NCBI RefSeq assembly: GCF_048403405.1
Contig: NZ_CP183137.1
Origin: Escherichia coli
GTDB taxonomy: Bacteria; Pseudomonadota; Gammaproteobacteria; Enterobacterales; Enterobacteriaceae
DNA length: 44,716 nt
Direction: 5' to 3' (one strand)
Shown: positions 20,191-30,611 of the stretch, piece by piece
Numbering within the stretch: position 1 is the stretch's first letter
How the letters are laid out: each line of letters opens with the position of its first letter
Position numbers and translations under genes: made by a program
The notes under the pieces: model-generated
What the model was told of the DNA's origin: nothing
The model's input: only the letters and a program-made list of their open reading frames with translations
Databases searched by the model: none

Positions 20191-21060
20191 TCAGGCATAA
20201 CGGATAATCACCGTCATCCCTGCCCGCCAGACTGACTGCCCTGTCACCGGTTTACTGAAATGAAGATTAAGAACTGCACCGGAAGAAATCCCGAGCGCAT
20301 ATGCACTGGAATAAAACCAGCCTTCACCCACCAGGTCCTGATAACCGCTTTCATCAGTAATCACCGGTGAGTCAGACACTCCCGGAACGCCCTGTTTCAG
20401 CTGTGTCCAGATACTTTCTGCGGACACTTCACCTTCCGTCATCCGGGAAATGAAGTTCAGTCCGTCGGCGGTGCGCCACGTACTACTGTCGGGTACGCCG
20501 CCATTAAAAACATAAGCATCAGCACTGTTATCCCCCAGCGTCTGGGTGATTCTGGCACCAAAGCCATCCTCTTCTGCCCACGCAAGCGCCCCGAAAGCCT
20601 GAACTTCTGCTGCCAGTGTGCCTGCTGTCTGAGTGTCCCCGGTGACGCTCAGTGGCAGAACAAGCAGCCCCTGTCCCGGCGTGCCTCTGGCCCACTGAAT
20701 ATGGATTTCGCTTCCGTCACTTCCCTTCAGCTGAATAACAGGAACAATACCAGCGCCGGATGTCTCACTACCCTCAAAAGCACGGGCTGATTTACCGGCA
20801 AGCAGCAGAAGGTCATAAGGCGCACTGACCGTCAGACGGGTTCCGTTACCGGTCAGCTCACTGATTTTGTTGCTGAACCCGGTATATCCGCCGGTTTTCC
20901 ACAGCCAGGGAGGAAGTGAATCATCATAAGGCGTGATGGTCCCTCCGAACGCCACAACTCCCTGAAAATCTCCGCCGGACTGCCATCCGGTACCAGCAGA
21001 AACTTTTCCGCAAATTAATAAAGAAAGAAAGAGAAAAGACAATAATAAGTAAAATATCAA
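20191..21060 (-). CDS. Fimbrial subunit-like protein (289 aa), distal gene of chaperone-usher cluster
   Basis: N-terminal signal peptide MIFYLLLSFLFLSLLICGKVSA; size and composition like FaeH/I/J-type subunits. Confidence 0.6.
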   Translation of the reverse strand: MIFYLLLSFLFLSLLICGKVSAGTGWQSGGDFQGVVAFGGTITPYDDSLPPWLWKTGGYTGFSNKISELTGNGTRLTVSAPYDLLLLAGKSARAFEGSETSGAGIVPVIQLKGSDGSEIHIQWARGTPGQGLLVLPLSVTGDTQTAGTLAAEVQAFGALAWAEEDGFGARITQTLGDNSADAYVFNGGVPDSSTWRTADGLNFISRMTEGEVSAESIWTQLKQGVPGVSDSPVITDESGYQDLVGEGWFYSSAYALGISSGAVLNLHFSKPVTGQSVWRAGMTVIIRYA

Positions 21061-21299
21061 TTACAGCATTCTGTCGCACGTCCACTCCCCTCTGAGACTC
21101 CTTCATCTGTATTATACAATCGTGGTGAAATTTCTTTTATCTTTCTGTAAACCTCACTGAAGTCATCTTCCACCATCACATAACCTTCAATCCCCCTGAT
21201 ATGAAGTTCACAAAAAACCCCCTTCTGAAGAACGAAACTGATGTCTTTTATATTCACCAGAAGATTTCGCCCCTGCCTGCTGACAAAGTGAATAAACAC
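21057..21299 (-). CDS. Small hypothetical protein (80 aa), possible regulator
   Basis: ORF between the EAL gene and the distal subunit gene; no recognised motif. Confidence 0.35.
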   Translation of the reverse strand: MFIHFVSRQGRNLLVNIKDISFVLQKGVFCELHIRGIEGYVMVEDDFSEVYRKIKEISPRLYNTDEGVSEGSGRATECCN

Positions 21300-21445
21300 G
21301 CCTGCCTCTCAATACAAATATGAATAAAAGAATAAAAACAAAAAGACGTTCAAGTAAGAAGAAAAACACTGCCGGAGTCTGAAAAATGCGATGCTGGCAC
21401 TCCGTTTATCAGAAATAAAATGAAATTAATTAAATGTATTTAATT

Positions 21446-22222
21446 TTATTTTTCAGGAGTGACGAGCCTGTACTCACAACAAAATGTATCCACTTTTTCC
21501 GGTCTGCCGAAATAAAACCCCTGCAGATAATCCACTCCCAGAGAGCACAGACAGTTCACCTGCGCCTGTGTTTCCACACCTTCTGCCACCGTATCAATAC
21601 CCAGCTTTCCTGCCAGCCCGACAACACTTTCCACGATATGCCGGGATGTCTTTTCACTCAGAATGTCCAGTGTGAAGCTCCTGTCCATTTTTATATAACT
21701 GACCGGAAAGTGCTTCAGGTACGACAGTACGGAACATCCGGTTCCGAAATCATCCAGTGCAAATACCACTCCGGCATCACACAGCCGGCTCAGTTTCTCT
21801 TCGGTCTGTCTGTCCATGTTAAACGGCTGCTGCTCCGTCAGCTCCAGAACCAGATGTGTGCTGTCATGCCCTGCCAGCGCCAGACACATCTGAGTGAACT
21901 CACGCTCAGCCAGCAGGGCCGGCGTCACATTCACGGCAAGCCGGAAGTCACTCGGCAGCATGGCTTTAATCTCAGAAAGTCCGGCCACCGCACGGTTAAG
22001 AATTTTTTCCGTCAGAGGCAACAACAGCCCGGCAGATTCAATCCGGTTAATGAAATATGCCGGCGGAATGATTTCGCCTGCAGGCATGTGCCAGCGAACC
22101 AGAAGCTCTGCACCGGACACAGTAAAGTCTGATGCAGAAACCACCGGCTGGAGATACGGTTCAAACTCCCCGTTAATGAGCGCACGCATCAGCCTGTCTG
22201 CGGATACAAAGTCACTGTCCAT
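21446..22222 (-). CDS. Stand-alone EAL-domain c-di-GMP phosphodiesterase (258 aa)
   Basis: EFEPYLQPVV near the N-terminus, DDFGTG and C-terminal ...YLQGFYFGRP are hallmark EAL-domain motifs. Confidence 0.8.
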   Translation of the reverse strand: MDSDFVSADRLMRALINGEFEPYLQPVVSASDFTVSGAELLVRWHMPAGEIIPPAYFINRIESAGLLLPLTEKILNRAVAGLSEIKAMLPSDFRLAVNVTPALLAEREFTQMCLALAGHDSTHLVLELTEQQPFNMDRQTEEKLSRLCDAGVVFALDDFGTGCSVLSYLKHFPVSYIKMDRSFTLDILSEKTSRHIVESVVGLAGKLGIDTVAEGVETQAQVNCLCSLGVDYLQGFYFGRPEKVDTFCCEYRLVTPEK

Positions 22223-22253
22223 ACTTTCGGTCTTCCATTTTATGAGGTGTACT

Positions 22254-29788: not shown

Positions 29789-29802
29789 AATCCTTTTCTC
29801 CG

Positions 29803-30338
29803 TTACTGATACGTGACCACAAAGGTCAGTGCACCCGTGTATTCCCCCGCCTTCACGTTCGCCGGAAACACCGGCTGCGCACGAAAACGGAACTGTCCCT
29901 TAGCAGCAAACTCCACCGGGTAATTCACCGAATGACTGTCCTGAGTCAGACGTCCGCGATAATCAGCCTGTGTATCCACCGCCCGCACATCCACGCGAAT
30001 ACCATCACCGGCACCGCGGGTGACCACCCCCCCTGCATCCAGCTGGCCCGGGTTACCAAAATCCAGGGTGGCGACCTGCCCTGCCTTAAAGGCTGAGCAG
30101 CCCTGAACCGTGGCACCGGACTCATACAGACGCACAGTGAAGTCACGCGGAGGCACAGACGCCCCCGTGGATTTGCGGTAAGTCCCGAATGTCAGCCGCC
30201 CACTGTTGCCGATACTGTCCGCATCCACCACCACATGACAGGCCGAAGCCACCACGTCAGCACTGAATACGGTTTTCTGAACAGAAGCGTTGACCCCCCC
30301 CCGACCAGAAGGAACAGAGAGAAATAGAAAGTTCGCAT
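29803..30338 (-). pseudogene. FaeC-like fimbrial subunit gene split by a poly-G(9) tract (frameshift or phase-variable OFF state)
   Basis: ATG at 30338 encodes signal peptide [15 protein letters not shown]; a 9-C run (plus strand, 30294-30302) puts the mature-protein ORF 29803-30255 out of frame; 10 or 7 G would restore it. Confidence 0.6.
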
Positions 30339-30362
30339 CTACTTGCCCCTCCCTGAATATTT

Positions 30363-30611
30363 TTAGAAAAACCTTTCCTGCTCCCCATAATATGAAGCGA
30401 GCTGTGATACTATCTGGTTCGTCCGAAAAAGACGGCCCAGCGCAATACTAAAATAACTACTGTTTGCACCATATCGTTCACAAGCAATTTTCCTGCTGTC
30501 TCCTAAAACGAGATAATCATGAAGAGCATTAATAATTTTAATACTGTGCACAGAAGAGAGTTCAATTAATAAATCAAAAGCAACTTCAGATACAAACCCT
30601 GGAATTAGCAT
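30363..30611 (-). CDS. PapB/FaeB-family fimbrial transcriptional regulator (82 aa)
   Basis: ...[48 protein letters not shown]... aligns with the PapB core (HSDRVILAMKDYLVGGHSRKEVCEKYQMNNGYFSTTLGRL). Confidence 0.7.

Follow-up and report, generated by a model that had tools for sequence, protein, structure and literature searches.

Why should a fimbrial operon of the F4 (K88) family carry a gene for a stand-alone EAL-domain protein, and why should it run straight on into the gene of an autotransporter protease? The question is raised by a locus in a stretch of 44,716 nucleotides from an Escherichia coli contig (NZ_CP183137.1), here called the window. On its minus strand, a set of 12 genes is read from position 30657 down to 20191 in the order regulator, FaeC, FaeD, FaeE, FaeF, major subunit, FaeH, FaeI, FaeJ, EAL protein, an 80-amino-acid (aa) protein (orf80) and a distal subunit, and a gene for a serine protease autotransporter of the Enterobacteriaceae (SPATE) follows. 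We identify the locus as a kappa-class chaperone-usher fimbrial operon of the F4 (K88) family, carried by an E. coli plasmid of IncF type. The answer that we favour, with moderate confidence, is that a K88-family operon is extended here by a distal block whose EAL enzyme would couple the adhesin to decisions governed by cyclic diguanylate (c-di-GMP), in a circuit that is partly degraded in this copy. The window differs at only 6 positions over 42.7 kb from pCREC774-3, a plasmid of a human urinary E. coli isolate, and NZ_CP141737 is 97% identical to it along the 12 genes. The gene lists given for both by the Prokaryotic Genome Annotation Pipeline (PGAP) are identical, and the locus is already machine-annotated in RefSeq, yet unstudied. 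An initial annotation, made from the letters of the DNA alone, had listed these genes in this order on one strand, which open reading frames (ORFs), domain matches and PGAP calls all bear out; its 5′ end of the operon, placed at 30611, has to be moved to about 30657, as a run of seven A residues where relatives have six puts the N-terminus of the PapB-like regulator out of frame.

The kinship of the operon is established by its assembly genes. Against the K88 plasmid of porcine enterotoxigenic E. coli (ETEC), in which the genes stand in the same order, identity is 90% for the FaeC-like minor (tip) subunit (29803..30338; weak Pfam Fimbrial match), 94% for the FaeD usher (27345..29788; NCBIfam PefC/AfrB usher at 1118 bits, cutoff 752), 97% for the periplasmic chaperone FaeE (26561..27352; PapD_N 8e-30), whose gene overlaps the end of the usher gene, and 94% for the minor subunit FaeF (26035..26526; Pfam DUF5462 7e-67). 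Beyond the major-subunit gene, the minor subunits FaeH (24002..24799; Fimbrial_K88 3e-77) and FaeI (23207..23971; Fimbrial_K88 9e-79) are each 88% identical to their K88 counterparts, and the accessory protein FaeJ (22417..23190; weak Fimbrial_K88 match) is 93% identical. The regulator, of the PapB/FocB family (30363..30657; Pfam PapB 9e-28), shares 51% with its counterpart in K88. As the assembly genes stand in matching order in a genuine porcine K88 plasmid and their products agree at 88-97% identity, the K88/CS31A-like assignment of the initial annotation now stands on a stronger basis than the one on which it had been proposed.

The major subunit (25023..25796) tells a different story. Far from falling into an unrelated fimbrial class, it belongs to the Fimbrial_K88 family (6e-50) and occupies the FaeG position; it is nevertheless not FaeG, to which it is about 30% identical (27-31%), too little for orthology with the subunit that defines the K88 serotype proper. 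Of the named subunits, CshE of CS13 is the closest (40%), followed by the F4_O169 subunits (33%) and FaeG (31%), in a comparison that comprised these three and left ClpG, F41, LdaG, AalE and RalG outside it. No FaeG chain was matched at E<=1e-3 in a search of PDB sequences. In the protein database, such major-subunit alleles of the F4 family form 934 clusters (at 90% identity), and the best 120 matches among these clusters include no serotype name, ClpG, F41, LdaG and AalE included. Relative to the alleles of sister plasmids the major subunit is only 42-68% identical, while the assembly genes of the same plasmids are 94-99% identical. Because assembly genes stay near-identical while major subunits diverge, the operon is best described as the K88 assembly machinery (FaeC to FaeJ) fitted with its own, putatively swapped and antigenically variable, major-subunit cassette, and is not K88 itself. 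One sister plasmid, RHB16, carries two tandem major-subunit genes in the FaeG position (12312-13966 of its locus) that share 52% identity with each other; the variable cassette can therefore also be duplicated. Variability on the scale of 934 clusters bears on serotyping and on vaccines directed against F4-type fimbriae.

The EAL gene (21446..22222) comes after faeJ and before a further subunit gene of the F4 family, all on one strand, as had been noticed at the outset. Its 258-aa product is a bare EAL domain (Pfam EAL 1e-63, 215 bits against a cutoff of 31), residues 9-241 of which cover profile positions 2-236 of 236. Among proteins of solved structure it is closest to the EAL domain of PdeL/YahA, an active E. 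coli enzyme (E 7e-51). In the alignment of the two, catalytic and metal-binding positions are identical throughout: E39-L-L-V-R43, E62, N98, E127-L-T-E130, D157-D158-F-G-T-G, K178, E214-G-V-E217 and Q234. A loss of catalytic residues, which would have undermined the interpretation, can thus be discarded, and because every catalytic motif is kept, we predict activity as a c-di-GMP phosphodiesterase. Its gene is 100% identical in NZ_CP141737 and evolves under purifying selection, the ratio of nonsynonymous to synonymous substitution rates (dN/dS) being 0.20-0.33 against orthologues of 90-92% identity. The gene family was found by blastn in 110 of 5426 complete E. coli genomes, at 82 plasmid and 45 chromosomal places; in the same genomes, and at the level of DNA down to about 65-70% identity, the search recovered this family only, and no sfaY or pdeL locus. 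Two other candidate identities were discarded. PdeU1-3 (PMC5635171) carry EVLIR, DDFGTGYAT and KLDKGF, among others, where the window protein has ELLVRW, DDFGTGCSV and KMDRSF, and a 40%-identical "cyclic diguanylate phosphodiesterase" of an ETEC plasmid, considered as a possible MrkJ, is an unrelated 511-aa protein encoded among insertion sequence (IS) elements.

The EAL gene does not stand there by accident of this one plasmid. After faeJ, the same order of a 213- or 227-aa gene, EAL gene, orf80, F4-family subunit gene and S6 peptidase gene is seen in pSalSendai, pSCU-478-1, the RHB16 plasmid, three E. coli chromosomes and a Cronobacter contig. Because the block recurs in so many relatives, the EAL gene and orf80 are not local insertions between subunit genes, as the initial annotation had worded it, and that wording is misleading. 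The peptidase at the end of the block in the window is a Tsh/Hbp-like SPATE of 1369 aa (16043..20152), which starts 38 bp past the last fimbrial gene on the same strand, so that the tsh-like gene does indeed adjoin the operon. It has an S6 protease passenger with GDSGS, a beta-helix and an autotransporter barrel, and it belongs to the Tsh/Hbp group (Hbp 1wxr at 1995 bits, barrel 3aeh at 676 bits, TIGR01414 at 5e-62). Identity to Tsh of pVM01 is 90% overall, with a nearly identical protease domain and beta-barrel and a divergent block at aa ~480-660. The protease behind the block is not always Tsh-like: products of 1204-1301 aa occur there among six relatives, one of them about the size of Sha, and in the N-terminal part these SPATEs share 63-88% identity with that of the window in the four relatives compared, which include RM9088, pSCU-478-1 and RHB16. 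The protease is exchanged and its position behind the block is kept. In the literature, the Figure 1 legend of Habouria et al. 2019 (PMC6592367) has fimbrial and EAL-domain ORFs coloured in maps of QT598 SPATE regions, with no comment on them in the text consulted.

The two remaining genes of the block are present and recognizable in the window. The orf80 gene (21057..21299), the 80-aa ORF of the initial annotation, encodes a small conserved cytoplasmic protein with 84 homologue clusters, nearly all of exactly 80 aa and with identities down to about 60%; conservation spans the N-terminal 58 aa, beyond which the tail varies. Because nearly all clusters keep this length and the N-terminal part is conserved, orf80 is probably a real gene, and PGAP annotates it in two relatives, pSCU-478-1 among them. 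Pairwise dN/dS is 0.5-0.8, on very few sites. No Pfam or NCBIfam profile matches the protein, and its AlphaFold model, with a mean predicted local distance difference test (pLDDT) of 61, gives best Foldseek matches in the PDB of E>=0.19 to small beta folds (SH3, Sso7d and LytTR-like), from which no assignment follows. The distal F4-family subunit gene (20191..21060; Fimbrial_K88 2e-28) is 84-100% conserved among relatives. Its product matches FaeG in the PDB (2j6g, E 8e-20), a database in which the "major" subunit finds no match, and as judged from these searches the distal subunit is the one that resembles FaeG more clearly.

In the window the block has lost its first gene. The alignment of intact relatives (pSCU-478-1 and pSalSendai) shows a 213-aa gene between faeJ and the EAL gene, at 9023-9664 of the locus in pSCU-478-1, where the window has a 117-bp remnant (22252..22368, minus strand) that is 100% identical to the left end of IS600, an IS3-family element, in Shigella and E. 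coli plasmid copies. The left-end sequence is multicopy and occurs in 3060 of 5426 E. coli genomes. A complete IS600, with both ends and orfAB, is absent from the window: only these left 117 bp remain, and no second copy of that end is found there. Of the 213-aa gene only the last codons survive (22212-22250). They are joined in frame to 17 codons of IS600 orfA, which begin at an ATG at 22304, and together they form a leader ORF of 30 codons (22212..22304, minus strand) with the translation MSRKTQRYSKEFKAEAVSTPHKMEDRKYGQ*. The stop codon of the leader overlaps the EAL start by 11 nt, the same overlap by which the 213-aa gene reaches into the EAL gene in all intact relatives and which the chimera has kept. 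The initial annotation had described the EAL start as fused to an IS3-family orfA leader; the leader is real and derives from IS600, while the EAL protein itself is unfused and shares no more than this overlap. The arrangement is best read as an insertion of IS600 that was then mostly deleted and took the upstream partner gene of the EAL gene with it.

How, then, might the block work? In the ancestral arrangement that we envisage, the 213-aa protein would be a regulator with a pseudo-receiver and a helical domain, the EAL phosphodiesterase would be translationally coupled to it, and the 80-aa protein, the second FaeG-like subunit and the SPATE would follow. Transcription of the fimbrial operon would express the EAL enzyme by read-through, its hydrolysis of c-di-GMP would tie adhesin production to motility and biofilm-matrix decisions, and the distal subunit and the protease would be delivered on the same transcript or just downstream of it. 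In the window this circuit would be partly degraded, the loss of its regulator gene to IS600 having left a 30-codon leader whose overlap with the EAL start persists, and further impaired by a distal subunit without its original start and by a regulator, a tip subunit and an usher that are frameshifted as sequenced. For S fimbriae, SfaY/PdeY has been reported to provide a similar coupling to c-di-GMP decisions, as have, with different wiring, MrkJ, FimK and STM0551 (PMC3487979, PMC5635171, PMC6385356). The gene content and order, the identities, the catalytic motifs, the IS stub and the relics in K88 and tsh plasmids described below are read directly from the DNA; from them we infer the enzymatic activity of the EAL protein, its co-transcription with the fimbrial genes and its physiological role. 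All operon genes lie on the same strand with short gaps, and a scan that performs at chance level turned up no terminator-like site between the genes of the distal subunit and the SPATE.

Some observations weigh against this coupling. The scan for promoters and terminators returned counts equal to those of shuffled controls and is not used as evidence, which deprives co-transcription of support from that side. No PilZ domain, the hallmark of an MrkH-like c-di-GMP effector, occurs in any ORF of the block or nearby. In RM9088 the EAL gene and orf80 are pseudogenes and the fimbrial genes are intact; because this relative keeps its fae genes with both block genes dead, the block is dispensable for fimbrial assembly. 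Not all assembly genes of the window are intact either, the faeC-like, usher and papB-like genes being frameshifted, and if these frameshifts are real, no fimbriae are made from this copy.

An unlikely but specific alternative would assign the leading part to the missing gene. It holds that the 213-aa protein is a c-di-GMP-responsive transcription factor of the fimbrial (or SPATE) genes whose ligand is set locally by the EAL enzyme, a feedback of the MrkH/MrkJ type that is broken in the window and has left the EAL gene an orphan. The 11-nt overlap of the two genes in every intact relative fits this view, as does the constant position of the 213-aa family in kappa operons, where even members of 31-36% identity come next after the last Fimbrial_K88 gene. 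In the confident AlphaFold model of the protein (pLDDT 89) a receiver-like alpha/beta domain precedes a helical one, and its best Foldseek matches (AmiR, ChrA, RcsB, EvgA and VpsT) are for the most part response regulators with helical DNA- or RNA-binding outputs (AmiR, RcsB, EvgA and the c-di-GMP-binding VpsT). These matches are, however, marginal (E 1.5e-4 to 1e-2, with low TM-scores), and assignment by sequence had to be given up, as none of the 28 family members matches Pfam, NCBIfam or PDB sequences. The W[FLM][TS]R motif of VpsT-type proteins is absent from an alignment inspected by eye, in which a conserved tryptophan stands in a GWGR context, and two distant operons have the regulator without an EAL gene. 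On the strength of the model, the protein might be a pseudo-receiver/helical regulator of an unnamed family, a suggestion that we make with reserve.

A doubtful second alternative regards the EAL gene, orf80 and the distal subunit gene as hitch-hiking remnants, and the fimbrial locus of the window as a pseudogene cluster in the making. It draws on the state of this copy, which we scored against two close relatives, pCREC774-3 and NZ_CP141737. In the papB-like gene, the seven A residues at about 30616 shift the first 15 codons and leave an 82-aa ORF from an ATG at 30611; the intact form, of 97 aa in relatives, matches Pfam profile positions 3-91. In the faeC-like gene (178 aa in relatives), nine G residues instead of ten at about 30293 cause a frameshift within the signal-peptide codons. 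In the usher gene (814 aa in relatives), six C residues instead of seven at 27512 shift the frame after residue 759, by which most of the PapC_C domain (residues 745-790) is lost. The three changes make up half of the six differences between the window and pCREC774-3 and all concern homopolymers. Because of this, and because the near-identical RefSeq plasmid has intact genes, they may be assembly or sequencing errors, or else real inactivation. The G run at about 30293 is also the longest G/C run of the window; in unbroken form (G10, or G9 in the window) it is confined to the lineage of the window, pCREC774-3 and NZ_CP141737, other relatives having G5-C-G4 in the signal peptide of the FaeC-like protein, and it could be a slipped-strand on/off site or an error hotspot.

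Other lesions are beyond such doubt. The IS600-linked deletion of the 213-aa gene and a 4-bp TCTT insertion in the distal subunit gene are certainly real, both being common to the window and pCREC774-3; the insertion puts the ancestral GTG start out of frame, abolishing it, and leaves only TTG starts, at 21060 or 21042. Together with the frameshifts, the pseudogenes of RM9088, the dN/dS of 0.5-0.8 for orf80 on its few sites and the fact that classical K88 and tsh loci function without the block, they speak for decay. Against it stand an EAL ORF that is intact, unchanged in NZ_CP141737 and under purifying selection relative to its 90-92% relatives, the conservation of the block over plasmids, chromosomes and genera, and the homopolymeric nature of the frameshifts.

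Finally, a YdiV-like, non-enzymatic role as an anti-FlhDC factor that represses motility by protein contact when fimbriae are made appears highly improbable: the EAL protein does stand alone without a sensor domain, and fimbrial operons often carry distal motility-repressing genes (PapX, SfaX, MrpJ), but YdiV-type proteins have degenerate active sites, whereas the protein of the window keeps every metal-binding and catalytic residue as well as the loop-6 DDFGTG motif, and its closest relative, PdeL, is an active enzyme.

The coupling of a K88-family operon to c-di-GMP through its distal block therefore remains our preferred answer, and traces of the block in better-known loci add a historical dimension to it. 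In the porcine K88 plasmid, about 125 bp past faeJ (11329-11460 of its locus) are homologous to the long form before the sequences diverge, and the first 48 nt of the 213-aa gene are kept there, where PGAP calls a 43-aa hypothetical protein. ColV-type tsh plasmids (pVM01 and about 240 others) match window positions 20153-20219, the 67 bp upstream of the tsh ATG, made up of the 38-bp spacer together with ~29 nt from the very end of the distal subunit gene; beyond them lies an IS3-family element. Because remnants of block genes persist in both, classical K88 and ColV tsh loci look like truncated derivatives of a longer arrangement, the remnants being observed and the history reconstructed from them. 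A bolder synthesis, which we put forward tentatively, would treat the kappa operon, the 213-aa regulator, the EAL gene, orf80, the second FaeG-like subunit and the SPATE as one co-inherited island of adhesion, signalling and proteolysis, of which K88 fae and ColV tsh would be truncated fragments, and in which regulator and EAL enzyme would form a new c-di-GMP circuit coordinating the expression of fimbriae and SPATE. In animal and human E. coli, fimbriae of the K88 family and Tsh-like proteases are major factors of colonisation and virulence, and the island would give the classical K88 and tsh loci a concrete evolutionary origin. If it is indeed one mobile island, adhesin production may be wired into a motility-versus-biofilm switch on a transferable plasmid. 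The newer by-products of the analysis are the conserved block of regulator, EAL gene, orf80, subunit and SPATE, the unnamed 213-aa family and the relics in K88 and tsh loci.

At the promoter end of the operon, a phase switch of the Pap type was considered and rejected, because its sites are absent: no GATC occurs within 28411-32121, and hence no GATC pair with a spacing of about 100 bp lies upstream of the papB-like gene. Nor is a PapI/FaeA-like gene annotated in the near-identical pCREC774-3, while one is annotated in the RHB16 relative. A strong depletion of GATC extends along the whole operon: a count over 20191-30660 gives 4 sites where dinucleotide composition predicts 34 (Poisson P about 8e-11). 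In the SPATE gene, 5 sites compare with an expected 15.5, and the flanks come much nearer to expectation. Between the major-subunit gene and faeH lies an RNA stem-loop (24945..24974, minus strand) with a 13-bp stem and no U-run after it. The 101-nt fold that contains it has a dG of -36.9 kcal/mol (z -4.35), a stability reached by 0 of 200 shuffled sequences, and the hairpin plausibly stabilises or attenuates the transcript.

Around the operon, the window holds further features of interest. At 33150-35059 on the plus strand, a gene of the Pycsar-system effector family stands next to one for a nucleotide-binding-domain protein, both so annotated in an identical RefSeq plasmid; at 2.5 kb from the operon, the two make a candidate pair for anti-phage defence. 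Just downstream of the SPATE gene, at about 11685-15934, stand genes of chromosomal type, namely fiu (catecholate siderophore receptor), ybiX, fragments of ompW and fmt, and an intact def (peptide deformylase). Two adjacent stretches of about 355 bp at 39200-39905, each 100% identical to both copies in the reference plasmid, form a tandem duplication in an IS91-related region.

Set against known systems, the locus shares with F4 (K88) fae the gene order, seven assembly and minor products at 88-97% identity and homology reaching ~125 bp beyond faeJ. It differs from it in a major subunit only ~30% identical to FaeG, in a regulator of 51% identity, in having neither paired GATC sites nor a FaeA/PapI-like gene, and in running on into the EAL gene, orf80, the second FaeG-like subunit gene and the SPATE gene. 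Common assembly genes with an exchanged major adhesin are also the pattern of CS31A (clp), CS13 (csh), CS23 (aal), Lda, Ral/AF-R2 and F4_O169 (fay), although in the F4_O169 locus no EAL or SPATE gene is annotated after the distal subunits. With Tsh/Hbp of ColV plasmids the protease shares 90% identity overall, yet its gene stands behind a fimbrial subunit gene where the ColV gene stands behind an IS element, and the central block is divergent.

EAL genes in fimbrial clusters are already known, and the window gene adds another example. The precedents are SfaY, MrkJ, FimK and STM0551 (PMC3487979, PMC5635171, PMC6385356). Deletion of MrkJ (Klebsiella type 3), FimK (Klebsiella type 1) or STM0551 (Salmonella type 1) raises fimbriation (PMC3487979). 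These three have in common with the window protein that they are EAL-domain proteins encoded inside fimbrial clusters; FimK differs in carrying a fused DNA-binding domain, and MrkJ in its MrkH-like PilZ activator, of which the window has no equivalent. The parallel with mrkJ drawn in the initial annotation is therefore fair as an analogy, and SfaY/PdeY is the closer precedent, being a stand-alone EAL gene within the sfa fimbrial gene cluster of E. coli (PMC5635171, PMC6385356). Both are stand-alone EAL phosphodiesterases, by prediction in our case, in chaperone-usher clusters, though of different fimbrial classes and with no similarity between the genes detected at the DNA level by blastn. SfaX is the neighbouring regulator in the sfa cluster, and SfaY is reportedly, from the title of a paper by Sjostrom et al. 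in 2009, one of two regulatory genes that the sfa operon carries in its promoter-distal part; the neighbour in the block described here, the putative pseudo-receiver protein of 213 aa, is unrelated in type. PdeL (YahA) of E. coli K-12, the closest solved EAL domain, has all catalytic residues in common with the window protein and brings its own N-terminal LuxR-type DNA-binding domain, whereas the EAL protein of the window stands alone and in its ancestral form would have been accompanied by a separate helical regulator encoded immediately upstream.

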